A stretch of DNA of 64,000 nucleotides from Candidatus Magasanikiibacteriota bacterium (GTDB taxonomy: Bacteria > Patescibacteriota > Patescibacteriia > Magasanikbacterales > UBA922): assembly GCA_049287025.1 (NCBI GenBank), contig JBAQFA010000051.1, positions 65,697 to 129,696 of the forward strand, in the 5' to 3' direction. Both the position numbers and the translations under genes were made by a program. The notes under the pieces were generated by a model. That model ran no database searches and had not been told where the DNA came from. It saw only the letters and a program-made list of their open reading frames with translations. Each line of letters opens with the position of its first letter. Positions within the stretch are counted from its first letter, which is position 1. This document shows, piece by piece, positions 5,583-48,670 of this stretch.

Positions 5583-5999
5583 TTCATTACATAGTAGATG
5601 ATCAATCTTCGACTTTATGTTGGAGGTAGGAAAGTCCGAACATTCACCCGATGTAAATTGGGTAATAGAGTAGCGGGTAACTCCCGTCGGTCGCGAGACT
5701 AGAGGTGCGAGCAGTGACGCCGAGACGCGAAAGTGTCGAGGCACCACGTAAAAGCGTAAGCTTTTCACGTGGTGAACTCTGATAGTGATATCAGAGGTGA
5801 AACGGCAAAATCCTTACTTGAATGAAAGAACAGCCTTTCGATTCACTTCGTTCGCTTAGAGCAGACTAATTATTGGATGCTTTGGGCGAATGAAGTGCAA
5901 TTTGATTGGACAAGTTAGTTCGCTTGACCCAGCTGGTAACAGCCTGGGCAGATAAATGATCGTCCTAGACAAAATTCGGCTTATAGCTATGTAATGAAC
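5583..5999 (+). ncRNA. rnpB: RNase P RNA (bacterial type A)
   Basis: 13-bp P1 helix: gttcattacatag at 5583-5595 pairs with ctatgtaatgaac at 5987-5999. Conserved 'GGAGGTAGGAAAGTCCGAACA' (P4 5' strand) and 'ACAAAATTCGGCTTATAG' (P4 3' strand, cf. ACAGAAcCCGGCTTA). Locally GC-rich with no ORF. Confidence 0.85.
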
Positions 6000-6086: not shown

Positions 6087-6135
6087 GATTTATTCCTTAT
6101 TCCCTGCCTGCGCAGGCAGGTTTATTCCTTACTCC
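6087..6135. repeat. 18-bp perfect palindrome cctgcctgcgcaggcagg flanked by direct repeats tttattccttaYtcc (family B palindromic element, intergenic copy)
   Basis: Perfect palindrome at 6103-6120. Flanking 14-15-bp direct repeats at 6087-6101 and 6121-6135. Related copies lie inside CDSs at 6694, 16525 and 18300. Confidence 0.5.
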
Positions 6136-6142
6136 TTTTTTT

Positions 6143-7579
6143 ATGAAACGTTCAGAAGTAATTTTAATGGTTTTACAAGTGCCAATTGATTTTGTGTTAC
6201 TTGTTTTGGCTGGTATCTCGGCTTATTATTTGCGTTTTTCCGAATGGGCAATACAATTGCGCCCGGTAATTTTTAGATTAACTCTGAATGACTTTTTTGA
6301 AGTAGCATTTTTGGTCTCTATAATTTGGATAGTTATTTTTGCGATTTTTGGTTTGTATTCAGCTGATCAGAATAGAAAATTATCTCGGGATTTGCTACGA
6401 GTTTTATTAGCTTCTTCAGTTGGTTTGGGAATCATTGCTTTGTACGTTATGTTTGCTCTGCAACAATTTGATTCTCGCTTTTTGGTAGCAGGTGGTTTTA
6501 TCTTGGCAGTTATTTATGTTAGTCTGGGTAGAATTTTGATGCGTGGGGTTAAGTCGCTTTTGTATAGAATGGGAATTGGTTTGCGTCGCGTAGTTATAAT
6601 TGGTACCGAAGAAGTGACGAAAAGTATTGTTAATACTTTGCAAAATAGAAAAGAACTTGGATATAAAGTTGTAAAAGTTTTAGAAAAGTTTAACCTGTCT
6701 GCGCAGGCAGGTAAAAATTTAATTCCCAAATTAGACAAATTAAAATTGAATGAAATAATTTTTACTAATCCCAAAGCTGATGAAAAAGAAACTTTAGGAG
6801 CTTTAAATTATTGCAATCAACGTCATATTGTTTTTAAATATTCCGCTGATTTATTTGCTACTTATAGCGCCAATATGTCTGTGACGGCTTTGGCTGGTGT
6901 GCCAATTGTAGAATTAAAACGCACAACTTTGGATGGTTGGGGTAGGGTAATAAAAAGAATTTTTGACATTATAATGAGCGTCGTAGTTATAATTATCACT
7001 TCGCCCATAATGCTTTTAACGACTTTTGTAATTTTAATAGAAACTGGTCGGCCAATAATTTATAAAAATGAAAGAGTCGGAATTAGAGGAAAGAATTTTT
7101 TTACTTTAAAATTTAGGTCAATGTTTCAAAAAGATTCCACTGGAATGCAATTTGGTGAGGTGGGGTTAAAAAATGAACAAAAGGAAAAGGAATTAATTAA
7201 AACAAATAGTATAAAATCTGGTCCAGTTTACAAAATTGCCAATGATCCTAGGGTGACACCATTTGGAAGATTTATTCGTCGTTGGAGCTGGGATGAATTA
7301 CCGCAATTTTTTAATGTTCTTGGTGGCAGTATGAGTATTGTTGGTCCGCGTCCTCATCAACCACGAGAGGTAAAGCAATACGAAGATGAATATAGTACAG
7401 TTTTTACTTTAAAACCTGGAATTACTGGTTTGGCGCAGATCTCTGGTCGGAGTGATTTGTCTTTTGATGATGAAATGAAGTTGGACGTATTTTATATAGA
7501 AAAATGGAGTTTGTTTTTGGACATTATTATATTTTTAAAAACACCGTTTGTAATTTTTAAAAAACGTAAGGCTTTATGA
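6143..7579 (+). CDS. Polyprenyl-phosphate sugar phosphotransferase (bacterial sugar transferase, WbaP/WcaJ/EpsL family)
   Basis: 478 aa. N-terminal TM helices. C-terminal catalytic domain with 'KRIFDIIMS', 'YKNERVGIRGKNFFTLKFRSM', 'DELPQFFNVLGGSMSIVGPRP', 'KPGITGLAQISGR'. Confidence 0.85.
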   Translation: MKRSEVILMVLQVPIDFVLLVLAGISAYYLRFSEWAIQLRPVIFRLTLNDFFEVAFLVSIIWIVIFAIFGLYSADQNRKLSRDLLRVLLASSVGLGIIALYVMFALQQFDSRFLVAGGFILAVIYVSLGRILMRGVKSLLYRMGIGLRRVVIIGTEEVTKSIVNTLQNRKELGYKVVKVLEKFNLSAQAGKNLIPKLDKLKLNEIIFTNPKADEKETLGALNYCNQRHIVFKYSADLFATYSANMSVTALAGVPIVELKRTTLDGWGRVIKRIFDIIMSVVVIIITSPIMLLTTFVILIETGRPIIYKNERVGIRGKNFFTLKFRSMFQKDSTGMQFGEVGLKNEQKEKELIKTNSIKSGPVYKIANDPRVTPFGRFIRRWSWDELPQFFNVLGGSMSIVGPRPHQPREVKQYEDEYSTVFTLKPGITGLAQISGRSDLSFDDEMKLDVFYIEKWSLFLDIIIFLKTPFVIFKKRKAL

Positions 7580-8700
7580 AAATTGCCTTGGTTCACGATT
7601 ATCTGGCTCAAGATGGGGGAGCCGAAAGAGTTTTAAAAGCCTTTCATGAAATTTGGCCTGAAGCCCCGATTTTTGTTTTGTTTCATGACAAAAATAAAAT
7701 TAAAGGTTTTGAAAAGGCTGATATACGTGAATCTTTTATTGCCAAAATGCCTTTTGGCCGGAAGAAATTTAAACTATATTTTCCTTGGATGCCAAGAGCG
7801 ACTGAACATCACAATTTGCATGATTTTGATGTGGTTTTGTCTTCTACCTCGGCTTTTGCCAAGGGGGTTTTGACTCGCCCTGAGACTTTGCATATTTCTT
7901 ATTGTCATACTCCGACGAGATATCTTTGGACAGATACCCATGAGTATATAGAAGATCTAAAATATAATAAATTAATTAAATTGGCCCTACCTCGGATTAT
8001 CCACCACATGCGTTTGTGGGACAAAATGAGTGTGGATAGAGTCGATCATTTCATTGCTAATTCTGGGACAGTCAGAAATCGGATTCAAAAATATTATCGA
8101 CGGGATAGTGATATTATTTTTCCGCCAGTAGATGTTAATAAATTTAAAATATCCGAAACAGTCGGAGATTATTTTGTATCGGGTGGACGTCTTGTACCAT
8201 ACAAGAGATTTGATTTATTGGTTCAGGCTTTTAATCGTTTGAAATTACCTTTGAAAATTTTTGGCGATGGACCAGAATTAGCCAATTTAAAAGAAATGGC
8301 TAAACCAAATATAGAATTTTTGGGTAGAGTGACAGATGAAGATAAAGCTGAATTATTAAGTAAAGCCCGGGCTTTTTTACACCCGCAAGTAGAAGATTGT
8401 GGTATTACGCCAATTGAATCAATGGCTTGTGGTCGGCCAGTCATTGCTTATGGCGTGGGTGGAGTGACCGAAACTGTAATTCCCGGTAAGACAGGTATAT
8501 TTTTTAATGACCAGACTTGGGAATCAATTGTAGACGCGGTAATAAATTTTGATCATGAATTGTGGTATCCAGACTATATTCGCAATTGGGCGCTACGTTT
8601 TGATGTGGATAGTTTTAAAGAGAGGATTAAACGATATGTAGAGGACAGACAGGAAGAATTTAAACAGGGTTTGGAACAATGTAAATTGGAAATACGGTGA
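7576..8700 (+). CDS. Glycosyltransferase family 4 (GT-B, 'group 1')
   Basis: 374 aa. 'FGDGPELANLKEMA...FLHPQVEDCGITPIESMACGRPVIAYGVGGVTETV' matches the GT4 C-terminal EX7E region. Start overlaps the upstream stop (translationally coupled). Confidence 0.8.
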   Translation: MKIALVHDYLAQDGGAERVLKAFHEIWPEAPIFVLFHDKNKIKGFEKADIRESFIAKMPFGRKKFKLYFPWMPRATEHHNLHDFDVVLSSTSAFAKGVLTRPETLHISYCHTPTRYLWTDTHEYIEDLKYNKLIKLALPRIIHHMRLWDKMSVDRVDHFIANSGTVRNRIQKYYRRDSDIIFPPVDVNKFKISETVGDYFVSGGRLVPYKRFDLLVQAFNRLKLPLKIFGDGPELANLKEMAKPNIEFLGRVTDEDKAELLSKARAFLHPQVEDCGITPIESMACGRPVIAYGVGGVTETVIPGKTGIFFNDQTWESIVDAVINFDHELWYPDYIRNWALRFDVDSFKERIKRYVEDRQEEFKQGLEQCKLEIR

Positions 8701-8742
8701 TCACATATCATATAACACATATCACATAACAAACATATAAAT

Positions 8743-9987
8743 ATGAATGTAGGTATTGATATTCGTTGTCTCATGGATAAAAACAGAACCGGTGTTGGGG
8801 AATATACTTTTGGTTTGTTGGATAATTTATTTAAAGGCATTGATTCCACAAATTTTAAAAAAGATTACACTGATAATAAGAATCAGTTTTTTTTATTTTA
8901 TAATTCTAGTAAAGATATTTTAGCTAATTTGCCAAAATGGGGTTATGAAAATGTACATTATATTGGATTAAATTGGCCGAACAAATTGCTTAATTTGCTT
9001 TTGTGGTTGAGGTTGATTAGGTTGGATAAAATGGTGGCCAAAGTATTGAAAGATCAAAAGATCAACCTTCGTCCCGAGCTCAGGTCGAGGGAAAGATCAA
9101 AAGATCAAATTAACAATGTAACAATTCGACAATGTAACAATCTTAATATTTGGTTTTCTCCAAATCTAAACTTTACCAATTTATCCAAGGGAGTCAAGCA
9201 TATCCAAACCATTCATGATTTATCTTTTGAATTTTTTCCAGAATGTTTTACTTGGAAACAAAGATTATGGCATTGGTTTCTCAATCCAAAAAAACAGTGT
9301 AAACGAGCGGACATTATTTTAACACCATCGGAGAATACGAGACGGGACGTTGTCGACAGATATCATATATCAGATAACAAAATACAAGTATTGAGACCAG
9401 GACTGTCTGTAGACAGAGGACATAAGACAGAAGACATAAGACATAAATATGGTTTACCAGAGAAATATATTTTGTATTTAGGGACGTTAGAGCCACGCAA
9501 GAATGTTGAAAGCATAGTAGATGCCTATAAATTATATCGGTCACAGATCACTGATCACTACCCACTTGTCCTCGCTGGTGCTCTAGGTTGGAAAAATAAA
9601 AAATTAATGCAGTTAATCAAAAACACTCCCAACGTCAAATACAGTGGTTATGTGGATGGTGAGGATAAAATGGTATTATATAAAAATGCCAGTTTATTTG
9701 TTTTTCCAAGTTTATATGAGGGTTTTGGTTTGCCTGTTTTGGAAGCAATGTCCTGTGGCGTGCCTGTAATTACTTCTAATCGCTCATCGCTTACAGAAGT
9801 TGGTCAGGATGCAGTTTACTATGTTAATCCTAACAATGTTAATGAATTGGCGGGGGCAATGGAATTGATCATGAAAAATAATGAGTTAAGAACGCGGATG
9901 ATAGCCAGAGGTTTAGAAGTTGGCAAAGATTTTGATTGGCAAAAATCAGCTCAAGAACTACTAAGTGTAATAAATAATGTAAGTTGA
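8743..9987 (+). CDS. Glycosyltransferase family 4, carrying in-frame repeat insertions
   Basis: 414 aa. 'YLGTLEPRKN', 'VFPSLYEGFGLPVLEAMSCGVPVITSN'. Contains the family-A palindromic element (9049-9142) and a palindrome plus gacataa repeats at 9403-9447. Confidence 0.8.
   Translation: MNVGIDIRCLMDKNRTGVGEYTFGLLDNLFKGIDSTNFKKDYTDNKNQFFLFYNSSKDILANLPKWGYENVHYIGLNWPNKLLNLLLWLRLIRLDKMVAKVLKDQKINLRPELRSRERSKDQINNVTIRQCNNLNIWFSPNLNFTNLSKGVKHIQTIHDLSFEFFPECFTWKQRLWHWFLNPKKQCKRADIILTPSENTRRDVVDRYHISDNKIQVLRPGLSVDRGHKTEDIRHKYGLPEKYILYLGTLEPRKNVESIVDAYKLYRSQITDHYPLVLAGALGWKNKKLMQLIKNTPNVKYSGYVDGEDKMVLYKNASLFVFPSLYEGFGLPVLEAMSCGVPVITSNRSSLTEVGQDAVYYVNPNNVNELAGAMELIMKNNELRTRMIARGLEVGKDFDWQKSAQELLSVINNVS
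9049..9142. repeat. Family A palindromic element inserted in frame in the GT4 gene
   Basis: aaagatcaaaagatcaa-[cgtcccgagctcaggtcgagg]-aaagatcaaaagatcaa, then acaatgtaacaat x2. Encodes 'KDQKINLRPELRSRERSKDQINNVTIRQCNNLN'. Confidence 0.5.
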
Positions 9988-10114
9988 CGTTATAATAGAT
10001 ATAAATAACAGTTTAACATATATTATGTTAACATTAACACTGATAAGTCTGGTATATATTGGTAAAAAATGGCTAAAACTAGCTAAGTTTAAGAAAGTTA
10101 TTAACCTGTGAAGG

Positions 10115-10143
10115 TTGACTAATGTTGATTTTTGGGGTATAAT
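10115..10143 (+). promoter_or_regulatory. Sigma70 consensus-like promoter upstream of the large secreted protein gene
   Basis: TTGACT at 10115-10120, 17-nt spacer, TATAAT at 10138-10143. Confidence 0.5.
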
Positions 10144-10187
10144 CCGCTATTCTTAATTTAATCTTAATAATTTTTAATTAATAATCT

Positions 10188-13100
10188 ATGCGAAAAATCA
10201 TCATAGGAGTAGCCGTTTTTGCTCTAGCAATCATGGCTCTACCAAATACAGCCAGCGCTGGTGGCTGTTATTATCCAAGGACAGCTAGTGAAATTATTGC
10301 TAGTAGTCCAACTAAAATAAATTTTGAAAAAACTTATGCTTTGCCTTTGACAGGCTATTGGAGTGATAATGGTGTGATGTTTTCTTCGGACAATGGAAAA
10401 GCTATATATATTAATAGTTATAATCGTGGTGGTTCCACAACAGCTTCTGGTGAATATTCTCTGTCTAATAATGCTACTTGGCCAAAAACTAGTGCAAATG
10501 ATCCATTAAAAATAAATTTTAAAAATGCAGTAAATAAAGTTGGTTTGTATTTAGGTAATGGCGAAGGTAGCGAACCTGTTGTGGCCGTGGTATCTTTATT
10601 TAATAAGTCTGGAGAAAAATTGTGTGATATTGATGTAGATGTTAAGTCAGATAATGTAGATACATTTTTAGGTTTTGAAACTGTAGCTGATTTGTATTCA
10701 ATGACAATTGATTATGGTAATACTACTCTAAGTGAAGAAATAGATGATTTGATGTTTACTTATAGTTCTAAATATGATCCAATTTGTTCAGAAACAGATG
10801 ATGGAGAAGATTATTATGTAAAAGGTGAAACTACTGGTCACTGGCTTTGTGTTGAAGACGGATATCCAATAGTCACGGAAAAAGATGTTTGTGTAGATGC
10901 GAACACTGTAAGAGAATATATGTGTAATAGTGGATGTAATAATATTTTAGCAACCGACGTAAAATGTCCTAACGGTTGTGTAAATGGAGCTTGTGTATCT
11001 CCTAGCGATATTGTGGTGCCAACCTTATCCAATTTTGTAGCTTATGACACAATTAGTGGAATAGGTTTGGTAGAAAATAAAGTTGGCTACAAAAAATATG
11101 GTAGTTATTCAAAACCATTACCAGTTTCAATTTACAATTCAACTAAAGCAATTAAATTATCTTTGATGCTTAAAAATAGCAATGATAATTTTACTTATGC
11201 TTATGTCTGGAATAATAATCCTTCAGATGGTGTAGAAGCTGATTACAGTGAGCAGACTGTGAAATCTATGGCTGGGTCAGCCAATTTTAATTCTTCGGCT
11301 GTGACAACTTTGAATTTAACTGACTATTATCGTGGTAAGTATGTGATGGTGCATGCGTTTGTGAGAAATAATGATGGTAAATCCGAAGTGCCAAATATGT
11401 CAGTAGAAGTAGATGAAGTCGTGCCATTATATTTTAGAATTGAGAAATTAAAAACGCCAACAGTAAATAGTTGTGTAGATTCTGATAATGGTTTAGAAAT
11501 TTATACCAAAGGTAGTACCAAAGGAGAAAAAGAAGGTACTAGAGTTTATGGGATTTATAATGATTCTTGCAGTAATAAAGTTGGTGAATCTGGTTTGTAT
11601 AGTGGTAAATGGGTAGTGGAACAACATTGTAGTGGCCCAGTTGACAAACCATATGTACATACTCAATGGAATGATTGTCCAAATGGCTGTATGGATGGCA
11701 AATGTGCTGAAAAGACTGTTTATGATAATACCATAAAGCCTACGGTAGCTTATCCAACAAACAAACAAGTTCTAACAAATTATCCAAGAGTAGCAACCCT
11801 AAAATGGAATTCAATTAGTGAAGCAGTTTCTTATAATATAGAATTGACATGTGATCATTGTAATAGTGTCGCCTGGCAAGATTATTATAAATGGACTTCT
11901 AAATCTAATTATTATGTTACCACTCCTCTAGATGGTGACAATGAATTTAGATTTAAAGTAAAGGCTGTGTATGCAGATGGTAGTACCAGTCAATGGTCTG
12001 ATTATAGATATTTTAGTTATAATACGTCAGCGTATTCTGAGAGTGTCTGTAGTGACCCAGATGGTAATAATACTAATGTAAAAGGTTATTCTAATGGTCT
12101 AAATAAAGTGACTAACAAACCGATGAATTATGTTGATTCTTGTGTGGTAAGTGACACTAACACGGTTTATGCTTATAGTAGTAATTATGTTAATGAATGG
12201 GTGTGTACCGCAGGAAATATTGTAGATAGTAGAGTTAGCAAGTGTAAAAATGGTTGTGTTGATGGACTTTGTGTTGAAGACAGCGAAGTTAATTATGATA
12301 TATCTGGTACAAGAGTAGTATTTTATATTTCTCTGAACCAGACCATGAAGCATAAAGAAAGCGGAGTAAATATAAAGTTGAATTATTTTGATGATAAAAG
12401 AATTTTGGTAAATTTGGATGGTGGTGCATATTTTGATGAGACAGTTTTGAGTTTAAAGACAAAGACCCAATTTTCCTTGATAAATGACAGTGTAAATAAA
12501 ATTGCCTTTACCTATTTAGGTAAGACAGCTGATGGTAAACAGGCAAAAATTTTACTTGATTATGGTGCAGATACCAATTTGAATGAATATGGTGCAGATT
12601 GTAATTTGAAAGTATATACAAAGGGTGACCAAACTGGTGGTGATGGAGTCTATCGTTTGTATGGTAGTGACAAACTTTATCATAGTGTATCTGGTATTAC
12701 TATGTCAGCTGACCCACTTGAAAAAAGTGCTAAGATTTATTTAGCGCTAAAGGGTGCTAAAGTATCTAATGTATTGATTAGTGCGAGTAGCATGAAATCT
12801 TTTACTTCAGCTAATGAAAAATATAATTTGACAGTTACATATAATGGATCTGATCCTTGTGGTGGTAGTATTATCACAGTAAAAAGTGAAAAGATTAGCA
12901 ATGAGGATTCTTGTTATAATTTATCTGGTATGGGAAACTTAGCTAAAGCTTGGGGTGATAATAAGGTCTGGTATGTGGAAGGTAATAATAAATATTGGTT
13001 TTCTTCAGCCGATGTTTATTTGTCCTGGTTTAGTGATTTCTCTGGTATCAAACTTACTGATGATAGTACAATTAATTCATTGACTCAGGGTGATAATGTT

Positions 13101-13640
13101 TGTCTAAAAACCGTATCAACTTGCTACAATCTTTCTGGTAAAGGTTATTTGGCCAAATCTTGGAATGATAACAAAGTTTGGTATGTTGATAATTCTACCA
13201 AGTATTGGTTTGCTAGTGAAAGTATTTTTAAATCTTGGTTTAAAGATTTTTCTGGAATCAAACTTATCAATGATAGTGTAATGAATTCTTTTGCTCAGGG
13301 TTCTGGTGTGTGTTATAAAGGTAGTATTACTATTCCAGTGGTAGAGAAACCTATCGTATCTTCAGGTGTGTCTTGTGGTAATTCGGCCGGTGGCGATGGT
13401 TTATATAGTATGTGTAAAGGTGATTCTATCCGCCATAGTGATGGGTTTACTATTACCAATCAAGCTTACACTGATAAAGTTTTGTCTTTAAAAACTGATG
13501 GTTTGGTAGCAACTTATATGCGTTTACCTATGAATGTCCCAGTCGTCATACAAGATATTACAGGAAAGAATAAGTATGATGTCACTTATACGCAAAAAAC
13601 AGATAAACACGGTGCATTCTTACAGATTGACAGTAAATAA
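10188..13640 (+). CDS. Large secreted cysteine-rich surface protein (signal peptide; CxNGCxxGxC modules; FN3-like domain; two C-terminal ~75-aa repeats)
   Basis: 1150 aa. Signal peptide 'MRKIIIGVAVFALAIMALPNTASA'. Repeated 'CPNGCVNGACV', 'CPNGCMDGKC' and 'CKNGCVDGLCV' modules. C-terminal duplicated repeat 'CYNLSG.G.LAK.W.DNKVWYV...KYWF...FSGIKL'. Confidence 0.7.
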   Translation: MRKIIIGVAVFALAIMALPNTASAGGCYYPRTASEIIASSPTKINFEKTYALPLTGYWSDNGVMFSSDNGKAIYINSYNRGGSTTASGEYSLSNNATWPKTSANDPLKINFKNAVNKVGLYLGNGEGSEPVVAVVSLFNKSGEKLCDIDVDVKSDNVDTFLGFETVADLYSMTIDYGNTTLSEEIDDLMFTYSSKYDPICSETDDGEDYYVKGETTGHWLCVEDGYPIVTEKDVCVDANTVREYMCNSGCNNILATDVKCPNGCVNGACVSPSDIVVPTLSNFVAYDTISGIGLVENKVGYKKYGSYSKPLPVSIYNSTKAIKLSLMLKNSNDNFTYAYVWNNNPSDGVEADYSEQTVKSMAGSANFNSSAVTTLNLTDYYRGKYVMVHAFVRNNDGKSEVPNMSVEVDEVVPLYFRIEKLKTPTVNSCVDSDNGLEIYTKGSTKGEKEGTRVYGIYNDSCSNKVGESGLYSGKWVVEQHCSGPVDKPYVHTQWNDCPNGCMDGKCAEKTVYDNTIKPTVAYPTNKQVLTNYPRVATLKWNSISEAVSYNIELTCDHCNSVAWQDYYKWTSKSNYYVTTPLDGDNEFRFKVKAVYADGSTSQWSDYRYFSYNTSAYSESVCSDPDGNNTNVKGYSNGLNKVTNKPMNYVDSCVVSDTNTVYAYSSNYVNEWVCTAGNIVDSRVSKCKNGCVDGLCVEDSEVNYDISGTRVVFYISLNQTMKHKESGVNIKLNYFDDKRILVNLDGGAYFDETVLSLKTKTQFSLINDSVNKIAFTYLGKTADGKQAKILLDYGADTNLNEYGADCNLKVYTKGDQTGGDGVYRLYGSDKLYHSVSGITMSADPLEKSAKIYLALKGAKVSNVLISASSMKSFTSANEKYNLTVTYNGSDPCGGSIITVKSEKISNEDSCYNLSGMGNLAKAWGDNKVWYVEGNNKYWFSSADVYLSWFSDFSGIKLTDDSTINSLTQGDNVCLKTVSTCYNLSGKGYLAKSWNDNKVWYVDNSTKYWFASESIFKSWFKDFSGIKLINDSVMNSFAQGSGVCYKGSITIPVVEKPIVSSGVSCGNSAGGDGLYSMCKGDSIRHSDGFTITNQAYTDKVLSLKTDGLVATYMRLPMNVPVVIQDITGKNKYDVTYTQKTDKHGAFLQIDSK

Positions 13641-13656
13641 GATTTGAAGTTAAATA

Positions 13657-13684
13657 AAACCCCACTTGAAAGAGTGGGGTTTGT
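13657..13684. terminator. Bidirectional terminator between convergent genes
   Basis: aaaccccac-ttgaaaga-gtggggttt hairpin with A/T runs on both sides. Confidence 0.6.
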
Positions 13685-13692
13685 TTATGAAA

Positions 13693-13980
13693 TTATTTTT
13701 CCAGTTCAGCTAGTTTTTTTTCCAATTCATCAAAAGTTAAATTTCCAGCCCTGTATGATTCAAAAAGTGTTAATTCTTTTTTTATCAGCTCAGAGTCAAC
13801 TGGTTGGTTGTCTCTTTCTTGACCGTATATGGCTTCGGCAGCGGCAACGTTTTCTTCTGTAATTCTTTGTATTTCTTCATCAGTGCGCTGTGGTTCACCA
13901 GTCATTTCATCTTTTAGTTCCAGAGCTTCTTTAAGCTCTGGGTATTTGGCGAGTAAAGCCTCCAATTTTTGATTGTCCAT
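13693..13980 (-). CDS. Small acidic coiled-coil hypothetical protein
   Basis: 95 aa. Last gene of a tightly spaced minus-strand operon. No recognisable domain. Confidence 0.5.
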   Translation of the reverse strand: MDNQKLEALLAKYPELKEALELKDEMTGEPQRTDEEIQRITEENVAAAEAIYGQERDNQPVDSELIKKELTLFESYRAGNLTFDELEKKLAELEK

Positions 13981-13994
13981 AATTTTTAAATTAA

Positions 13995-15434
13995 TTAATT
14001 AGTAAAATAATTCATTTGTTTTAATTTTTCAACAGTTTTTATTGTTATTTTTTCAATTACTTCTGGTGTTAAGTCTTTAAATTGCGTTGCTAATTCTTTT
14101 GCAGATTCAGCAATAACTTTGGTAATTTGGCTTGTATAACTTTCGCCATTTTTACTTTCTTTTTTTCTTGTGTCGTCAACAAAAGACACTCCTTTACCAA
14201 TTTTATCAGTAAAAAATGAAGTTTTTTTTCGTACTGCATCCTGTGGTATTTGTGAAATTATTGTTTTAATTGCTTGTAGCCATTGATCGGATTCTGTTTT
14301 TTGTTCTGTTGTCTCTGCTTTCGGTATATATAAATATGCGACACAAGTATCAGTTCTTTCATATGCAGCAAAATCTTTTCTAAACTTGAATTTTAAGCGA
14401 ATTCCGTTTTGATCTAAATAATCAGAAAGTTTACTGAGACATTCTGCAACTTTAGTAGTGCCATCTGGGCTGGCGTTAATATAGAATCGTACCTCTCGTG
14501 CATTATCCTTGTATGGAGCATTACCTTTAAACCAAACGAATCCCGCTGCTTGGTCTGGCTGTTGACCGTCGATAAGTTCTTGTTCGGTAATGTGTCTAAC
14601 TTTAGAAGATTGTGTTACTATATCAATTAATCTGTTACTAATTTCGGTATCGAAGTTTGCAATGAAATTTTCTTTGTCTGGGACATTAATCTCATCTTTT
14701 ACCTCTTGGTCAGTCATACCAGATTTATGTATATATTCATACATTACTACCGGCATTTTTGCTAGCATCTCAACATCACTTAAAGACTGTCGTTTTTTAA
14801 ATTCATCATCTGTTTCCCCAATATTTTTTCTGTTTCTAAATCTATCCATCTTCCCTCGAAAGTCTTTATCATTGAGAACAAGTTGTAGAAAATTTTTAAT
14901 TTGTTCTTCAAACAGTTGTTCTCTTTCAGATTTTATTTTTGTTTCAAGCTTATTGGTTGTTGTTTTTGGTAAAGGTTGTTTTTCTTTCTGCCTGAGATAA
15001 TCTAAAATTTTCTGTCGCAGTTTAACTTGTTCTGGGTCTGTGGTTCCCCAGAGTTCTTGTACAATTTCAGAAGACAGCCCTCGATACTTGGTTGGGATGT
15101 CTTGTTCTGTTATTGGTGGTTCGATACTCTCAGGCTTTGACATTGGCTGTTTTTCCTTGCCTCTTAGATACTCCAAAATTTTTTGACGTTTTTCAATCTC
15201 GTCTGGATGTGAAGTCTGCCAGATCTCTTCAAGTATTTCTGCAGAAATGCCACGATATTGAGGTGGTATATCTTCTTCGGTTGTTGGTTGTTCAGTGTCT
15301 TCTTCCAATTCAAAAAGCGTCTCAGTTGCTAATTTTTCTTGAGCTTTTGTTTGACCAGAAGTTGAACGAGGCTGTTTTTCGGTTGGGTGTAATTCTGGGT
15401 TTATGATTTGTTCTATTTCTTCATCTCTGTCCAT
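13995..15434 (-). CDS. Hypothetical protein with a tandem ~50-aa acidic N-terminal repeat
   Basis: 479 aa. The repeat 'EEDIPPQYRGISAEILEEIWQTSHPDEIEKRQKILEYLRGKEKQP' is followed by a near-identical copy 'EQDIPTKYRGLSSEIVQELWGTTDPEQVKLRQKILDYLRQKEKQP'. No recognisable domain. Confidence 0.6.
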   Translation of the reverse strand: MDRDEEIEQIINPELHPTEKQPRSTSGQTKAQEKLATETLFELEEDTEQPTTEEDIPPQYRGISAEILEEIWQTSHPDEIEKRQKILEYLRGKEKQPMSKPESIEPPITEQDIPTKYRGLSSEIVQELWGTTDPEQVKLRQKILDYLRQKEKQPLPKTTTNKLETKIKSEREQLFEEQIKNFLQLVLNDKDFRGKMDRFRNRKNIGETDDEFKKRQSLSDVEMLAKMPVVMYEYIHKSGMTDQEVKDEINVPDKENFIANFDTEISNRLIDIVTQSSKVRHITEQELIDGQQPDQAAGFVWFKGNAPYKDNAREVRFYINASPDGTTKVAECLSKLSDYLDQNGIRLKFKFRKDFAAYERTDTCVAYLYIPKAETTEQKTESDQWLQAIKTIISQIPQDAVRKKTSFFTDKIGKGVSFVDDTRKKESKNGESYTSQITKVIAESAKELATQFKDLTPEVIEKITIKTVEKLKQMNYFTN

Positions 15435-15436
15435 AG

Positions 15437-16282
15437 TTAGTTTAATTCCTTTATTTTTTTGATTAATTCAGAAACAGGCAAACTATCTCCAAATGGTTTG
15501 TATAGCATTCCCTTAAATTTTTTTAATCCAAACTTTGAAAAAGTTTCTAAAATATTTAGATTAAACTCTTTTAAAGCTAAAAATACTTTTTTTAAATCTT
15601 GATCATAAAAATTTTCTTCCAGTCTGTAAAAGGCTGCTAATAATTGGTGACGTATTTCTGGGTTAAAGATTTTATAACACAGTTCTTTGCGGAAAGTATT
15701 CTCTAGAGGATAATATGCTGGTAGATTGCCAGCTTTGGTTTGTAATCCCGTTGTAAGTAATTTTTGTTTGTCGTTCTCATTTAAGTAAGTAAATTCATAG
15801 AGCACTTGTAATGTGTATTCTAAAACATAAAAAATACCTATTTTTTGAATAACATCTTTATCATTTTTTTCTTGTTCTTCTGGGGATAGTTTTTTTGTCC
15901 TGTCCGCTAATTTTTTCAATAAAACGTGATGTTCTATTACGGCTGTTTTGGTTTTTGTAAATATTTTGTTTATATCCCCTAATAATTCTTCAACTTGGGT
16001 GTTTGGTGCTGGGGTGTTTGAATAAATATCAATAACATTGCCGAGCGCTTGGATAAATTCAACCTCATTAATTTTTGTTTCCATTAGTATTATTTCTGTA
16101 TTTTTTATAGCTTTGTAAGCGTGAGTAGTGGTTAGGTTTTTATTTTCCAGAGCATTTTTTAGAGAAATTGTTGCTGATAGAATATTTTTTAGAATTATTT
16201 TTTGTTCTTCTGTACCCCAAAAGTTTAATGGTTTTGTGCCCAATTTTTGAATTGTTTCAAGAAGAGTGTAGAGTGGTGTCAT
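15437..16282 (-). CDS. Hypothetical alpha-helical protein
   Basis: 281 aa. Its stop lies 2 bp before the start of the downstream gene. No recognisable domain. Confidence 0.55.
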   Translation of the reverse strand: MTPLYTLLETIQKLGTKPLNFWGTEEQKIILKNILSATISLKNALENKNLTTTHAYKAIKNTEIILMETKINEVEFIQALGNVIDIYSNTPAPNTQVEELLGDINKIFTKTKTAVIEHHVLLKKLADRTKKLSPEEQEKNDKDVIQKIGIFYVLEYTLQVLYEFTYLNENDKQKLLTTGLQTKAGNLPAYYPLENTFRKELCYKIFNPEIRHQLLAAFYRLEENFYDQDLKKVFLALKEFNLNILETFSKFGLKKFKGMLYKPFGDSLPVSELIKKIKELN

Positions 16283-16364
16283 AAAGTTTTGTTTGTATGT
16301 TAAGTATAATATAATGGCTTAGATTAGTAAATAGTTGTTGGAGGGGTTGTTTTTTTGTTGATTT

Positions 16365-17585
16365 GTGATAAATTATAGCTATATGAAAATAGGTATTGAC
16401 GCTAGAATGATGGGTTCAAAACAAGCTGGTTTAGGACGTTATGTTGAACAGCTGGTTTTGGGTTTATTGGAACAGGACAAAGAGAATGAATATGTACTGT
16501 TTACAAACAACGGTAACACACCATGTCTGCCTGCGACGGCAGACACCCCACTCAAGAGGGGATTTAAAATTGTTGAAGCAAACATACCTTGGTACAGCTG
16601 GCAAGAACAGACAAAATTTAAAAAAATAATTGATAGGGAAAAAATTGATTTAATGCATTTTCCTCACTGGAATGTGCCGTTATTTTATAATAAGCCATTT
16701 GTCGTCACGGTGCATGATTTGATTATGTACCATTATCCTCGGCAAGAGGCGAGTACTCATGGGCCGTTTGTTTATTGGCTGAAAGATTTAGGACATCGCC
16801 TAGTACTTAATCACGCGGTACAAAAAGCCAAGCATATTATTGTGACGAGTGAATTTACCAAGCAGGATTTACATCAGACCTTGGGAGTTTCATTAGAAAA
16901 AATGACTGTGACTTACCAAGCACCGTTTCAAAACACGATTCATGATTCACATAACACGACACAAGTTTTAAAAAAAAATAATGTTGAAAAACCATACGTT
17001 TTGTATGTTGGGAATGCTTATCCTCATAAAAATTTGGAAGGATTGTTAAAGTCTTGGAAAATTTTTAATGAAAAATATGGCAATGAATACCAATTAGTTT
17101 TGGTTGGCAAAAAGAATTTTTTTTATGAAAGACTTTTGAAAGATCAAAAGATTGAAAGATCAAAAGATCAGGAAGAAAAATCAGGATTTTCCGATCTTCC
17201 GATCTTCCGATCTTCAATTATTTTTACTGATTACGTCACAGACAATGAACTATCCCAACTATACGTCAACGCTTCACTCTACGTCTTCCCTTCACTCTAC
17301 GAAGGTTTTGGTTTACCACCACTCGAAGCACAACAATATAATGTGCCAGTGGTTTCTTCCAGTGCTAGTTGTTTGCCAGAAATATTAGGCGAGTCGGCGT
17401 TGTATTTTGATCCAGAGAATTATGAACAAATGGCGGAGGTGATTTATACTGGTTTGACTAATGAAGATATGAGATTTGAATTAAGACAAAATGCGAGAGA
17501 AAACCTAAAACGTTTTAATTTAAATAATATGATTAGTCAGACGTTGTTGATTTATAATAATATTGTTAAATTATTACATTATTAA
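16365..17585 (+). CDS. Glycosyltransferase family 4, carrying in-frame repeat insertions
   Basis: 406 aa. 'VFPSLYEGFGLPPLEAQQYNVPVVSSSASCLPEIL'. Contains a family-B palindrome (16525-16544), a family-A element (17137-17216) and a 12-nt direct repeat (17273-17301). Confidence 0.8.
   Translation: MINYSYMKIGIDARMMGSKQAGLGRYVEQLVLGLLEQDKENEYVLFTNNGNTPCLPATADTPLKRGFKIVEANIPWYSWQEQTKFKKIIDREKIDLMHFPHWNVPLFYNKPFVVTVHDLIMYHYPRQEASTHGPFVYWLKDLGHRLVLNHAVQKAKHIIVTSEFTKQDLHQTLGVSLEKMTVTYQAPFQNTIHDSHNTTQVLKKNNVEKPYVLYVGNAYPHKNLEGLLKSWKIFNEKYGNEYQLVLVGKKNFFYERLLKDQKIERSKDQEEKSGFSDLPIFRSSIIFTDYVTDNELSQLYVNASLYVFPSLYEGFGLPPLEAQQYNVPVVSSSASCLPEILGESALYFDPENYEQMAEVIYTGLTNEDMRFELRQNARENLKRFNLNNMISQTLLIYNNIVKLLHY
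17137..17216. repeat. Family A palindromic element inserted in frame in the GT4 gene
   Basis: gaaagatcaaaagattgaaagatcaaaagatcagga ... tccgatcttccgatcttccgatcttc. Encodes 'LKDQKIERSKDQEEKSGFSDLPIFRSS'. Confidence 0.5.
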
Positions 17586-17656
17586 ACTGCTATCTACCTC
17601 TGTTTCTCTGTGTAGTAGAACAGTGCAAAAATGTAACAATGTTTCATTATATTTAT

Positions 17657-17678
17657 CCACCCCAAACAGGTGGTTTTT
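17657..17678 (+). terminator. Rho-independent terminator after the GT4 gene
   Basis: ccacc-ccaaaca-ggtgg followed by T5. Confidence 0.5.
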
Positions 17679-17790
17679 CTTTTTAAGAACACAAAAATAT
17701 GGTATAATATTGATGTTAAAATTAAGTCAGATTTTTCTCTTAAATTAGCTAAAAAATAGAGTTATTAAAATAGTAAAAGTTTTTTGTTAA

Positions 17791-20433
17791 ATGCCAGCAA
17801 AAAGAAATGTACAATTGAGGTCTTGTTCTCTGTGCGGTCGCACTGGTCATAATCGAGCGCGGTGTAAAAATAATATTGCAGAGACAAAAATTGAAAAAAA
17901 GGCTAAACCAACGCAAAAAAACAAATTATCAACTAAGAAAAAGTTGGTAAAAAAGATAGCGGAGGATTTTTTTGTTTCTCAAAAAATTGGTTTAGGTAAG
18001 CCTATACTTGTTAGAAGCGAGATTAATACCAAATCATCACCGCACATAATAAATTTGAAACGAAAAGAAGAAACAGTTTGGGACAAAGTTGGTGTTTATC
18101 AGGAAAAGGGTTTAATCCAAAAACAAAATGTGGTGGTAGATTTTGGGCAAATGGTAAAGAAGGCTAACGCCGTTGGATTGGGAATGAGGAGTAGGGGTTT
18201 GGAGGCGAGAAATATTAAAATACATAAATCAGATTCAGTGTTGAATAATAATTATAAAAAAAATAAACAGAAAATAAATATTAATTCAGTCTTCGCTAAC
18301 CTGTCTGTGCGGGCAGGAGCTGTGATGGACAAGCAAAAATTAAACAGAAATTTTACAAAAATTAAAAATATTATTTTAAGTACGTGGAATTCTACATTCT
18401 ACATTCTACATTCTACATTCCGAAATTTCAATTACAAAAAGTTAGCTTATGCTTCTTTAGTTTTATTAATACTAATTAGTTTACCATTTCCAGCTTTTAG
18501 TTATTACAATAGTGTGCAAAATACTAGTGCCAGAATAGTAGAGGCGAGTACCAATGCTTTTTTATCTTTACAGTCTTCAACGGTGGCGGCTATGAATTAC
18601 AACATTCCTCAAGCGCAATTTGATTTGAATGAAGCTTTAATTTCATTTGGTGAAGCCAATACAATTGTAGACAAAGAACATCAAGTGTTGCAGTATGTGG
18701 CTGGCCTTTTACCCGTGGTTGGTACCCAAGTAACTAGTCGTCAACATTTATTAGTAGCTGGTCACCACTTGGCTTTGGGTAATACTTATCTTGTAAAGGG
18801 TTTAAAAGAAGTGGAAGATAATAATAGTTTTTCTACAACTGACAAAATTAAAATTATTGCTAATCATTTGTCTAGTGCTATACCACAATACGAAGAAGCC
18901 TTGGCTGATTTGAGTGCAGTTGATTCTTCGGCTGTGCCAGTTGAATATCAAGAATCTTTTAATGATTTTAAGGTTTTATTTACGGCTCTAGTTGATGATA
19001 TGAATGACATCGTTGATTTGTCTGATTCTCTAGATTTAATTTTTGGTTCAGACCAATTAAAAAGATATTTGCTTGTATTTCAAAATAATAGTGAACTACG
19101 TCCGACAGGTGGTTTCATGGGTAGTTTTGCGATTATGGATGTGCAAAAAGGCAAAATTACAAATTTGGATATTCCGGGTGGTGGAACTTATGATTTACAA
19201 GGTCAATTGAATGAATATCTTAAACCACCATTACCTTTGCAATTGTCTAATGATAGATGGGAATTTCAAGATGCCAATTGGTTTCCAGATTTTCCAGCTA
19301 GCGCAAAAAAGATTGCCTGGTTTTATGAACATGGTCGTGGTACCACGGTTGATGGGGTAATAGCTCTCAATGCTTCAGTTTTGGAAAGACTTTTATCAGT
19401 TTTGGGTCCAGTGACAAATTCAGAAAATAATTTGACATTGGCATCTGATAATGTTTTACCTCAATTACAATACAAAGTAGAAGTTGATTATGATAAAGAA
19501 GAAAATAAGCCAAAAGAAATTTTGTCAGATTTGGCTTCGCAATTTTTAAATAGTATGACTCAGTTGGATGCCATGAGTGCCATTCGTCTTTTGTCAGAAT
19601 TAAATGAAGCTTTGACACAAAAAGAAATTCAAGTTTATTTTAATGATAGTATGCTCGAGTCCAAGATGAAAAGTTTTGGCTGGGCTGGAGAAATTATTAA
19701 TAATACGAATGATCAAGATTATTTGTATGTAGTGAATACTAATATCCATGGACAAAAGAGTGATGCAAAAATAAAACAAACAATTGAACATCAAGCGGTA
19801 ATTGATGACAGTGGTTCAATTTTGGATACAGTGGTAATTACTCGGGAGCATACCGGTACACCAGGAGAAATGTTTTTTGGTGTTAACAATGTGGACTATA
19901 TTAGAGTTTATGTTCCAGCTGAGGCAGAATTAGTTGAAGCGGGTGGTTTTGTTTATCCGCCCGAAGAAGCTTTTTATGTGCCAGAGGATTGGTATAAAAT
20001 TGATTCTGATTTGGAAACCAATGAAAAGGAAATTAATATTGATAAAAAAACCGGTACGAGAATTACTAGCGAATTTGGTAAAACCGCTTTTGGTAATTGG
20101 ACAATGACTGCTCCTGGTCAAATCAGTAAAGTTTATTTTACTTACAAATTACCTTTTAAAGTGATAACGGAAAATAATAAAGAAGAGACGACTTTTGAAA
20201 AATGGAAAAAAACTTTTGTAGGTGAAGCGACCGAAGTATCACGTTATAGTTTGTTTGTCCAAAAACAATCTGGGATTGATAGTGATTTTAATTCTCGGGT
20301 TATTTACCCAGCCAACTGGACACCAATTTGGCAAGAAAATGAAAATTTGCAGATGGCTGTTAATGGGGCCGAGTTTTCAACCAGACTCAAGACTGATGAT
20401 TTTTTTGGATTAATAATGGAAAAAAATAATTAA
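17791..20433 (+). CDS. Membrane protein with an N-terminal CCHC zinc knuckle and a large extracytoplasmic DUF4012-like domain
   Basis: 880 aa. 'CSLCGRTGHNRARC' fits C-x2-C-x4-H-x4-C. One TM helix near aa 215-235. 'NNSELRPTGGFMGSFAIMDV...DANWFPDFP' is as recalled for DUF4012. Confidence 0.55.
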   Translation: MPAKRNVQLRSCSLCGRTGHNRARCKNNIAETKIEKKAKPTQKNKLSTKKKLVKKIAEDFFVSQKIGLGKPILVRSEINTKSSPHIINLKRKEETVWDKVGVYQEKGLIQKQNVVVDFGQMVKKANAVGLGMRSRGLEARNIKIHKSDSVLNNNYKKNKQKININSVFANLSVRAGAVMDKQKLNRNFTKIKNIILSTWNSTFYILHSTFRNFNYKKLAYASLVLLILISLPFPAFSYYNSVQNTSARIVEASTNAFLSLQSSTVAAMNYNIPQAQFDLNEALISFGEANTIVDKEHQVLQYVAGLLPVVGTQVTSRQHLLVAGHHLALGNTYLVKGLKEVEDNNSFSTTDKIKIIANHLSSAIPQYEEALADLSAVDSSAVPVEYQESFNDFKVLFTALVDDMNDIVDLSDSLDLIFGSDQLKRYLLVFQNNSELRPTGGFMGSFAIMDVQKGKITNLDIPGGGTYDLQGQLNEYLKPPLPLQLSNDRWEFQDANWFPDFPASAKKIAWFYEHGRGTTVDGVIALNASVLERLLSVLGPVTNSENNLTLASDNVLPQLQYKVEVDYDKEENKPKEILSDLASQFLNSMTQLDAMSAIRLLSELNEALTQKEIQVYFNDSMLESKMKSFGWAGEIINNTNDQDYLYVVNTNIHGQKSDAKIKQTIEHQAVIDDSGSILDTVVITREHTGTPGEMFFGVNNVDYIRVYVPAEAELVEAGGFVYPPEEAFYVPEDWYKIDSDLETNEKEINIDKKTGTRITSEFGKTAFGNWTMTAPGQISKVYFTYKLPFKVITENNKEETTFEKWKKTFVGEATEVSRYSLFVQKQSGIDSDFNSRVIYPANWTPIWQENENLQMAVNGAEFSTRLKTDDFFGLIMEKNN

Positions 20434-48565: not shown

Positions 48566-48670
48566 CAGAGGATGCTCAGTTTCGGCCAAAGGCCGACCAG
48601 CCTCTGGCTGGGGTTAGAGCGTCCCGATTTTACATCGGGAAGGTCAGAAGTTCAACTCTTCTCGGGTCTA
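48566..48670 (+). other. Partial tRNA-Val duplicate lacking a 5' acceptor strand, with the anticodon arm replaced by hairpin tcccga-ttttaca-tcggga (UUA anticodon-like loop)
   Basis: 48613-48670 repeats GGTTAGAGCG ... AGGTCAGAAGTTCAACTCTTCTCGGGTCTA, the exact 30-nt 3' end of tRNA-Val. The preceding 48 nt contain the hairpins tcggcc-aaa-ggccga and agcc-tct-ggct. No sequence pairs with the 3' acceptor strand. Confidence 0.4.

Follow-up and report, generated by a model that had tools for sequence, protein, structure and literature searches.

The 64,000-nt stretch of DNA from a Candidatus Magasanikiibacteriota bacterium analyzed here (contig JBAQFA010000051.1, positions 65,697 to 129,696; hereafter the window) contains a GC-rich palindrome of 18 bp, the family B element or 18-mer, of which one copy is intergenic and others lie within genes. 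The locus raises the question of how such a sequence enters protein-coding genes without disrupting them, and from what it is derived. Comparison with related genomes confirms that the 18-mer is a piece of mobile DNA whose precise insertion into genes has added six residues to their products. It probably represents the outer 9+9 bp of the inverted repeats of a cassette that encodes a GIY-YIG nuclease domain, that is, a remnant, footprint or minimal derivative of that cassette.

Precise insertion and dispersal of the 18-mer

The GC content of the window is 34%, and the best matches of its proteins are to Candidatus Magasanikbacteria, which belong to the candidate phyla radiation (CPR, Patescibacteria). 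A preliminary description of the window had singled out four palindromic sequences, all of which are present where it placed them. When up to 3 mismatches to the family were allowed, a pattern search of the window yielded three sites (6 strand matches) against 0.02 expected, a count that none of 100 shuffled sequences equaled; the window has very few GC-rich perfect hairpins, and these three family B sites are among them. For comparison we used syntenic DNA of a relative within the Magasanikbacteria from three independent assemblies, deposited at NCBI (L001), ENA (L002) and JGI (L003); the window and relative lineages share ~87% protein identity. The features on which the analysis turns are the following.

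6103-6120, no strand assigned: intergenic copy CCTGCCTGCGCAGGCAGG, a perfect 18-bp palindrome
6090-6135, no strand assigned: pre-existing period-7/8 tandem repeats (TTATTCC-type) split by this palindrome and adjacent in the empty site of L001 and L003
6694-6711, plus strand: copy CCTGTCTGCGCAGGCAGG in the sugar transferase gene 6143-7579, read NLSAQAG and adding LSAQAG as residues 185-190
8846-8847, plus strand: empty site in the GT4 gene 8743-9987, GATTC^CACAAA in the window and filled with CCTGACTGCGCAGGCAGG in the relative
18300-18317, plus strand: diverged copy CCTGTCTGTGCGGGCAGG (15 of 18 positions) in the DUF4012 gene 17791-20433, read NLSVRAG
16524-16545: hairpin TGTCTGCCTGCGACGGCAGACA in the GT4 gene 16383-17585, read CLPATAD
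16525-16542, plus strand: probable diverged copy TCTGCCTGCGACGGCAGA in a variable loop of the same GT4 gene, read LPATAD in the family frame

The intergenic copy is located between the RNase P RNA gene (5586-5999) and the ATG of the sugar transferase at 6143, 22 nt upstream of the latter; as RNA, it is predicted to fold at -12 kcal/mol into a hairpin whose 7-bp stem carries a GCGC loop. The sugar transferase itself, which combines the Bac_transf and CoA_binding_3 domains, consists of 478 residues in the window, compared to 472 in almost all of the best 120 homologs listed. Aligning the host protein with orthologs that lack the peptide, as had been proposed in the preliminary description, resolves this difference: among 18 aligned sugar transferases, a gap of 6 residues faces LSAQAG in all 17 orthologs (..KFN------KNL..), including the 88%-identical P0002, and this gap is the sole length difference in that region of the alignment. 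At the DNA level, the copies at 6103-6120 and 6694-6711 each amount to 18 extra bases relative to L001 and L003, and nothing more, so that the insertion into the gene is precise and in frame. The corresponding empty sites in both assemblies read ..CCTTATTC^TTTACTCC.. and AAATTCAA^TAAAAATTT (also written ..AAATTCAA^TAAAAATTTAA..). The same description had suggested mapping the inserts onto structural models. The model obtained for the sugar transferase is only moderately reliable, with a mean pLDDT of 57.6, and beyond its better-predicted nucleotide-binding-like domain it is weak; within that domain, LSAQAG falls in a low-confidence loop (pLDDT <50) between the strand 174-180 and the helix 193-199.

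Direct repeats that had been described on both sides of the palindrome are indeed present in the window (TTATTCCTTATTC / TTTATTCCTTACTCC at the first copy, AAAGTTTAA / AAAATTTAA at the second). Their interpretation as target-site duplications has to be abandoned, however, because the repeats are already adjacent in the empty sites of the relative, as in ..TTATTCCTTATTC^TTTACTCCTTATTCC.. for the first copy, and the insertions measure exactly 18 bp; therefore, no target-site duplication occurred. The reverse situation is found in the GT4 gene 8743-9987, where the window is empty and the relative carries CCTGACTGCGCAGGCAGG (L001:13785, L003:7563), an exact 18-bp extra block that is read DS|LTAQAG|TDF and is found in three assemblies (NCBI, ENA and JGI). 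Thus, all three pairs of empty and filled sites differ by exactly 18 bp, with zero duplicated bases, and since the window copies are missing in the relative and the copy of the relative is missing in the window, presence and absence differ both ways. All of these events map within one 12-kb glycosyltransferase cluster. Such exact insertions, together with a length that preserves the frame, uphold the earlier claim of a mobile palindromic element whose copies keep the reading frame.

The remaining two sequences are less clear-cut. The one at 18300 lies inside a 16-residue block that is missing from the L001 ortholog, in a poorly conserved linker, and the limits of the insertion cannot be defined because the surrounding linker is too variable. 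Its hairpin is kept on the sense strand via G-U pairs (-11.9 kcal/mol) but not on the antisense strand (-6.2 kcal/mol). The hairpin in the GT4 gene 16383-17585 agrees with the family at 14 of 18 positions and in codon phase (tgT CTG CCT GCG ACG GCA GAc); its C1:G18 pair is changed to T:A with pairing kept, and the predicted 8-bp stem has a folding energy of -13.7 kcal/mol. A 54%-identical GT4 ortholog (P0195, locus L149) contains a perfect 18-mer in the same loop, read SLPAQAG. To judge from these sequence features, the hairpin at 16525 is probably an old, diverged family B copy; the lack of recurrence of its exact 20-mer, which is absent from all fetched loci, weighs against membership. We also considered this hairpin as a separate repeat family and rejected that possibility, given that the 20-mer does not recur and its single match in the metagenome collection, on an unrelated contig with 66% GC, is attributable to chance.

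The suggestion to search other genomes proved productive. An exact-match pattern scan covering one genome per species detected the 18-mer at 120 or more loci, so that the copy numbers and taxon shares given here are lower bounds and perhaps biased. By record title, at least 69 of these loci belong to many classes of Patescibacteria (the titles of some binned-genome records may be wrong), including WWE3, Uhr-, Beckwith-, Woese-, Gottesman-, Roizman-, Shapiro-, Nomura-, Kaiser-, Wildermuth-, Yonath- and Zambryskibacteria, Saccharibacteria, Paceibacterota and others. Among the matches listed, there are eleven Bacteroidota and two cultured isolates, Litoribacter ruber (one of the Bacteroidota) and Rosettibacter primus; the remaining listed loci come from scattered low-GC genomes and from high-GC genomes in which a chance match is plausible. 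The identity of the 18-mer across many phyla among these matches had gone unnoticed in the preliminary description. One to a few copies are found per 8-kb locus, in some cases in nested or tandem arrangements (L143, L127, L018, L029). Within 708 kb around the index copies, there are four further copies with 1 mismatch and none with 2-3 mismatches; this scarcity of diverged copies indicates that the copies are young, short-lived or constrained.

Apart from a few composite repeats within genomes and a few orthologous loci, the flanks of the copies are unrelated. The only signal in the flank logos of 99 sites is a purine^pyrimidine step, and no fixed target sequence was detected. A purine before and a pyrimidine after the element occupy 79 of 104 flank positions of non-coding copies (76%, both flanks pooled; p = 5e-8), and a purine is found at -1 in 36 of 37 coding copies; the empty sites in the window and its relative read ATTC^TTTA, TTCAA^TAAA and ATTC^CACA. 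Short-period (period-7-type) tandem repeats contain or adjoin 15 of 101 copies (~15%) compared to 6 of 285 random positions (Fisher p = 1e-5).

The 18-mer contains no stop codon in any of the six frames and has three possible readings, PACAGR, LPAQAG and CLRRQ. When genic copies are defined as those in stop-free frames of at least 200 codons, without reference to gene calls, 48 of 100 low-GC copies qualify, and 38 of these (79%) are in the LPAQAG phase (xxC CTG CCT GCG CAG GCA GGx; p = 1e-10). This phase is also used by all genic copies in the window, by the copy of the relative and by the L149 copy. Insertion into conserved proteins is seen in UvrA of a Wildermuthbacteria genome, where an exact six-residue gap faces LPAQTG in the alignment with PDB 2R6F, and in EF-G of a Paceibacterota genome, where the insert occupies a variable loop ahead of the NIIDTPGH strand.

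Several candidate vehicles and functions were discarded. No transposase recurs within 1.2 kb of the copies, and none was found among the window open reading frames scanned against Pfam, so a neighboring transposase was rejected as the mover. A phage vector was rejected as well: of 25 viral contigs with the 18-mer, almost all have 50-67% GC and a chance-like or different context, and a scan of viral contigs for the cassette protein described below returned only ordinary phage GIY-YIG genes devoid of the arms. A terminator role was dismissed because a T-rich run follows just 5 of 52 non-coding copies.

As a separate observation, in Bacteroidota the 18-mer forms the core of larger multi-copy repeats with conserved flanks, such as ..GCGTTAACGAYGGTAGCGG[18-mer]CATCCTTTTTT..; these were seen at L047, L093, L102, L109 and L017 (Sphingobacteriales bin43), L008 and L058 (Saprospiraceae), and L071 (Litoribacter ruber).

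GIY-YIG cassettes with the same ends

A search for isolated 9-mers, the half-sites of the palindrome, linked the 18-mer to much larger units, a connection absent from the preliminary description. The units are cassettes of 282-291 bp (~94 codons) that start with CCTGCCTGC(C)GCGCCGC, end with GCGGCGC(G)GCAGGCAGG, and encode a GIY-YIG (Slx1-like) nuclease domain of ~85 residues; none of those inspected begins with a start codon. The first case, from a WOR-3 genome (L092), is a segment of 291 bp bounded by CCTGCCTGCGCCGCGCCCCGGAC and GTCCGCGGCGCGGCAGGCAGG that places the domain in frame within an HsdR gene. The same gene also contains a perfect 18-mer and a 39-nt form, CCTGCCTGCCGCGCCGC-TTCACTTT-GCGGCGCAGGCAGG, in which the arms enclose 8 nt and which is read LPA|PQSEAAR|QAG. 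An even shorter form of 20 bp, CCTGCCTGC-CG-GCAGGCAGG, is present in L098. The 18-mer encodes exactly LPA + QAG, like the cassette junctions, which links it to the cassette ends, and the size series of ~290, 39, 20 and 18 bp with shared duplication-free purine^pyrimidine junctions fits a single family.

The PF01541 domain of L092 has homologs fused to HsdS, HsdR, HsdM-like and MsrB sequences, in which the arms encode DLPAPRP or ACLPRR N-terminally and AARQAG or SRRRQV C-terminally. In the DNA of L151 (an hsdS gene of a type I operon), L152 and L153, both ends carry the exact 9-mers; two of these cassettes have lengths of 291 and 285 bp, and that of L152 is 315 bp, including a nested 30-nt hairpin. 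In L156, an ArgRS gene annotated as Candidatus Taylorbacteria (CPR; GCA_016188445.1, JACPHS010000016.1), a 282-bp cassette, CCTGCCTGCgccgcggccgg…ccggacgcgGCAGGCAGG, lies between A and C. Taken together, the five cassettes examined in DNA (L092, L151, L152, L153 and L156) contain both 9-mers, have lengths divisible by 3 and lack any duplication of flanking bases; a purine precedes all five, and a pyrimidine follows four of them. In the three cassettes that were checked for open frames, only one of six is open: it is the LPAQAG phase in L092 and L153, whereas the L151 type has an extra C in the repeat and is read in the ACL phase. The inverted repeats of the cassettes extend over 16-22 bp, that is, beyond the 9-mers.

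A profile search of 1.84 billion representative proteins yielded 125 clusters at E <= 1e-30, almost all of which are internal segments of larger proteins. Among the 119 cassette cores in the fetched set, an N junction of the LPAP type is found in 100, a C junction of the RQAG type in 91, and both in 80, the full junction peptides being LPAPRP… and …RQAG. The assignment to PF01541 is supported by ten cassette-bearing proteins that score 46-61 bits, above the cut-off of 22.6, and by precomputed PF01541 hits in P0241-P0249; in a Pfam scan for Hint or protein-splicing domains, the cassette proteins gave only GIY-YIG and host domains. The hosts include ArgRS, QueC, trigger factor, two pseudouridine synthases, a PD-(D/E)XK nuclease, DNA methyltransferases, HsdR and HsdS, and many of the HsdS cassettes are located at one conserved sequence, PQDPND|EPASVLLERIK.

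Two further observations concern the surroundings of these nuclease genes. In HsdS proteins such as P0272, P0298, P0303 and P0391, tandem degenerate mini-units, for example GLPAPECKLRQAG and GSPAHQSKLMQAG, lie beside the cassette and look like repeated derivatives that consist of the inverted repeats only and are translated. In L040, L098 and L052, the palindrome has a free-standing small GIY-YIG gene nearby, at distances of 20, 35 and 122 nt, respectively (p ~0.002). At these loci (L040 1700-2100, L098 1-400, L052 6650-7260), the gene lies by a tRNA and is bracketed by a direct repeat of the 5' 25-35 nt of that tRNA; the palindrome splits the upstream, redundant tRNA copy, which in four Parcubacteria genomes is a tRNA-Gln broken at position 10|11 and in L098 another tRNA broken in its D-loop. 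L051 and L057 have the same palindrome-interrupted tRNA-Gln fragment and lack the GIY-YIG gene. This association involves three CPR-type loci. An intron-like insertion into tRNA genes was considered and rejected: removal of the 18-mer restores a tRNA-Gln call in L052, yet the interrupted copy there is degenerate and duplicates an intact neighboring gene; only 5' tRNA fragments are present in L040, L051 and L057; and in L098 no tRNA is called, whether the insert is included or removed.

Origin of the palindrome and competing explanations

Under the derivation from cassettes that we consider probable, the complete element would be the unit of 282-291 bp, with a length that is a multiple of three, inserted bluntly, mostly at purine^pyrimidine, without target-site duplication. 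The nuclease could be produced only as an internal segment of a host protein, and it would mobilize the cassette. The cargo-less form would consist of the outermost 9 bp of the left and right inverted repeats joined head to head. The retained length may be due to the offset of the repeats by one base after position 9, such that the folded stem would pair perfectly over its outer 9 bp and then bulge; the bulge could be cut by a structure-specific, Slx1-type nuclease, and religation would complete the precise loss of the interior. Alternatively, the 18-mer may have been moved in trans as a minimal substrate. Once only the ends remain, the host gene would keep 18 bp that are read LPA + QAG if the cassette was in frame. 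Because a cassette can persist in a gene solely in its one open phase and in the sense orientation, the remnant is expected to read LPAQAG nearly always, in agreement with the observed frame bias. Joining via 2-nt CG overhangs, which are typical of some GIY-YIG enzymes, was considered as well and dropped because the repeats differ at position 10 and the overhangs would not match in the sequenced cassettes.

Several observations weigh against this derivation. The 64-kb window and the 21-kb syntenic region of the relative contain neither a GIY-YIG gene nor a full cassette, and none of the best 120 sugar transferase orthologs listed has a length suggestive of a cassette residing at that site. At the CPR loci with 18-mers, the nearby GIY-YIG genes are free-standing, located beside tRNA genes and devoid of arms, and a single full CPR cassette, that of L156, has been verified in DNA. 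Ten of the 48 genic copies are in other frames, whereas a pure in-frame footprint predicts none, and some of these long frames are probably spurious. Finally, the retention of 9+9 bp is accounted for just by what we infer from the one-extra-C offset between the repeats, and the route of excision or transposition is likewise inferred.

The strongest of the competing explanations, in our judgment unlikely, sees in the 18-mer a minimal mobile hairpin that looks autonomous, comparable to REPs or small dispersed repeats and copied by a host or HUH/Y1 enzyme; the cassettes would have been inserted into, or have captured, such palindromes. This would account for the precise insertion without duplication, the strength of the hairpin, the frequent location in or beside slippage-prone short tandem repeats, and the nested and tandem arrangements at L143, L127, L018 and L029; with no stop in six frames, any phase would be tolerable in principle, and most copies have no cassette nearby. 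Yet there is just R^Y at the junctions, rather than the conserved tetranucleotide or guide that IS200/IS605 or REP/RAYT systems need, the 5' GTAG or CGTC tag of REP families is absent, the copies number few per genome instead of tens to hundreds, and no transposase-like gene recurs near them. Furthermore, the frame used by 79% of the genic copies is the sole open frame of the cassette, a coincidence that direct insertion would have to attribute to peptide selection alone, and the cassette ends are conserved in ~100 clusters.

An improbable alternative takes the 18-mer to be the intact homing site of the GIY-YIG nuclease, with the cassette as a homing-endonuclease gene that splits the center of the site and the palindrome spreading by other means, for example recombination. 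The cassettes are bounded by exactly the two palindrome halves, the palindrome center takes further inserts (the 39-mer and the 20-mer), and homing endonuclease genes as a rule lie within, and so disrupt, their own sites (Dunin-Horkawicz 2006, PMC1564403); the concentration of cassettes at PQDPND|EPASVLLERIK in HsdS also fits homing via flanking homology. This scheme, however, leaves the exact insertion of an 18-bp site into unrelated genes unexplained. Cassette-free HsdS needs no palindrome at that position, the junction fitting the insertion of the whole unit into GA^C, and inverted repeats of 16-22 bp, well past the 9-mers, are typical of element ends rather than of a split host site.

That the palindrome is not selfish DNA but is retained because it is functional, whether as a signal in DNA uptake or recognition, as a hairpin of regulatory RNA or through a useful peptide, LPAQAG, we regard as highly improbable. 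Its constancy across phyla with few decayed copies (in the 708 kb, four with 1 mismatch and none with 2-3), the hairpin retained on the sense strand only by the diverged copy at 18300, and the identical 18-mers with differing flanks at the same position of a tRNA-Gln fragment in four Parcubacteria genomes could be taken as signs of such a role. Against it stand the few copies per genome, unlike uptake signals, the presence/absence differences between close relatives whose host proteins are otherwise unchanged, the scatter of sites over unrelated proteins and loops, and the rarity of T-rich runs after non-coding copies (5 of 52), which shows that they are not terminators. The prospect of an assembly or library artefact or of chance resemblance, raised by the prevalence of metagenome-assembled genomes among the carriers and by sequence identity in very different taxa, is practically nil, because an artefact cannot yield the frame bias (38 of 48, p = 1e-10) or the R^Y preference, the copies bear substitutions, some of them compensated, the cultured isolates Litoribacter ruber and Rosettibacter primus carry the 18-mer, and the copy of the relative appears in three assemblies, against a chance expectation of 0.02 in the window.

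How does the element relate to known repeats? Rickettsia palindromic elements, reportedly characterized by Ogata et al. (2000), are ~100-150 bp long, have palindromic ends, occur in frame within genes and are restricted to Rickettsia; no nuclease cassette is known to be associated with them. The resemblance to these elements that had been suggested for the window extends to in-frame insertion into genes, with absence from orthologs (17/17 sugar transferases; UvrA 2R6F), and ends with size, host range and the GIY-YIG connection: the present element is exactly 18 bp long, ranges over Patescibacteria and further phyla, and is identical to the joined ends of a GIY-YIG cassette. Its host here is Candidatus Magasanikbacteria, and the carriers are mainly Patescibacteria, not Rickettsia. 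Yeast mitochondrial GC clusters and the derived 'byp' translational-bypass elements, which are 27-60 nt long and some of which are target-duplicated or skipped by the ribosome, are likewise GC-rich palindromic islands that invade coding sequence in an AT-rich genome. These, however, belong to a eukaryotic organelle, whereas the length of the family B insert is always a multiple of three and its frame bias speaks for translation. Very small dispersed repeats (21-27 nt) have reportedly been found by Elhai and colleagues (2008) in Nostoc and other cyanobacteria. Family B resembles them as a mobile hairpin repeat of less than 30 nt that becomes visible by comparison of orthologous loci and is sometimes nested, and differs in sequence family and hosts and in that a candidate parent cassette is identified here; no encoded enzyme is known to be linked to the cyanobacterial repeats.

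Among elements with identified enzymes, REPs and REPINs, which are mobilized by RAYT (Y1 HUH), are GC-rich hairpins of 20-40 bp with a GTAG/CGTC tag that are extragenic, reach tens to hundreds of copies, often in doublets, and are each tied to one species and the RAYT of that species (Bertels and Rainey 2011, PMC3116915; Di Nocera et al. 2013, PMC3733652). Family B shares with them the short, GC-rich hairpin and mobility without target-site duplication, but has no such tag (only R at -1 and Y at +1), places 48 of 100 low-GC copies in long open frames and has few copies; no RAYT (Y1 transposase) gene was found among the open reading frames of the 64-kb window scanned against Pfam or near the copies. 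Like miniature inverted-repeat transposable elements, it shares terminal inverted repeats with its candidate parent element, which, however, encodes a GIY-YIG nuclease rather than a DDE transposase, and there is no target-site duplication at three site pairs and five full cassettes. IS200/IS605 elements, including the PATE derivatives, also cause no duplication, but family B lacks their fixed tetra- or pentanucleotide target. With inteins and free-standing homing endonuclease genes, the cassette has in common that a selfish nuclease unit lies in frame in conserved proteins and needs host expression. It differs from inteins in that it has no Hint domain and shows no sign of removal from the protein (junctions LPAPRP… / …RQAG), and from both in its inverted repeats of 16-22 bp, its many unrelated sites and the 18-bp derivative that it would leave or spawn. 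The element thus lacks defining traits of Rickettsia palindromic elements (size, host), REP/RAYT (tag, extragenic location, copy number), classical miniature inverted-repeat elements (target duplication) and IS200/IS605 derivatives (fixed target).

The closest precedent is the report of an Slx1-like GIY-YIG domain in the middle of HsdR, with an 80%-identical homolog that lacks the domain, which the authors judged 'very recently inserted' (Dunin-Horkawicz, Feder, Bujnicki 2006, BMC Genomics 7:98, PMC1564403). The cassettes described here are similarly PF01541 domains, situated within HsdR, HsdS, HsdM and many other proteins, whereas the passages of that paper on this domain treat a single case as a curiosity of domain architecture and contain no mention of inverted repeats, LPAPRP/RQAG junctions, a start-less in-frame design, housekeeping hosts or 18-bp remnants. 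Nothing on the 18-mer or LPAQAG was found in the searchable literature, and nothing specific on in-frame palindromic elements in CPR bacteria or on GIY-YIG cassettes with inverted repeats.

A bolder proposal, which we put forward tentatively and consider somewhat short of even in likelihood, is that the ~290-bp unit represents an unrecognized class of mobile elements, a 'domain transposon' without promoter or start codon that has GC-rich inverted repeats, inserts bluntly and in frame, and upon exit or collapse leaves an 18-bp LPAQAG scar. Its hosts would include essential genes such as those for ArgRS, trigger factor, EF-G and UvrA, its structure-specific nuclease would be translated within the host protein, and scars would be spread across Patescibacteria and other phyla.

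Other features of the window and implications

The window contains additional features of interest. In the QueA-like gene 37337-38503, positions 38200-38280 form an extra GC-rich block of ~25 residues (…FLPLPGGVRGGLQPEGPHPTSPYRGGA…) with the palindromes CTCCCCCTACCAGGGGGAG (38204-38222) and CCTCCCCTTATAGGGGAGG (38259-38277), and the alignment with PDB QueA 1VKY breaks exactly at this block, with query residues 288-317 facing ~5 residues. This block is probably a second family of in-frame palindromic inserts. The GT4 loop following 'YVLF' is a hot spot of inserts: in the window, CCCCACTCAAGAGGGG at 16546-16561 (TPLKRG) adjoins the family B-like hairpin; the same loop of the relative contains CCTCCCCTAATAGGGGAGG (L001 18940-18958); and other GT4 orthologs (P0122-P0240) have peptides of the types TSPYKGE, PLxRGE and RPKADQPLAG that resemble further palindrome families. 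Within the fetched loci, no recurrent GC-rich perfect hairpin other than family B was detected; the only candidate, TCCGTCAGCTGACGGA, was rejected as a recurrent family when it proved to be one orthologous locus encountered three times.

Downstream of its diverged copy by 70 nt, the coding sequence of the DUF4012 gene contains 4-5 tandem units of the heptamer ATTCTAC (18388-18422). The 22 nt that precede the ATG of the sugar transferase (6121-6142, TTTATTCCTTACTCCTTTTTTT) show no purine-rich Shine-Dalgarno sequence on the coding strand and instead contain CTCCTT, which resembles an anti-Shine-Dalgarno. At 48599-48671, between tRNA-Val and tRNA-Ile, ARAGORN calls a tRNA with the anticodon TTA ('Stop') that is below the Rfam gathering score for tRNA; the call may be a false positive or may mark a pseudogene or a suppressor-like tRNA. 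Finally, the last ~10 kb (~54100-64000) contain no listed complete open reading frame of at least 150 aa, and no rRNA was found there; most simply, this region is part of one very large gene that runs off the end of the window, such frames being unlisted.

The in-frame occurrence of a GIY-YIG cassette within many bacterial proteins is barely described. If true, the derivation of the 18-mer from these cassettes would explain why six residues, LPAQAG or variants of it, recur as an insertion in conserved proteins of bacteria that are uncultured and have very small genomes, and the 18-bp motif would become a readable historical marker of invasion by the nuclease cassette. The cassette itself would be a very economical parasite of ~94 codons that borrows the transcription and translation of its host, and it would offer a candidate enzyme with a defined 18-bp substrate for the study of how GIY-YIG (Slx1-like) nucleases may relocate DNA while leaving the target unduplicated. 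That type I restriction-modification genes carry so many cassettes suggests that the cassettes interact with host defence. On the practical side, inserts and cassettes could be flagged or masked in protein alignment, phylogeny and structure prediction. Should the interpretation of the cassette as a domain transposon be borne out, no smaller protein-coding mobile element would be known, and a new way for conserved proteins to acquire loop insertions would have come to light.

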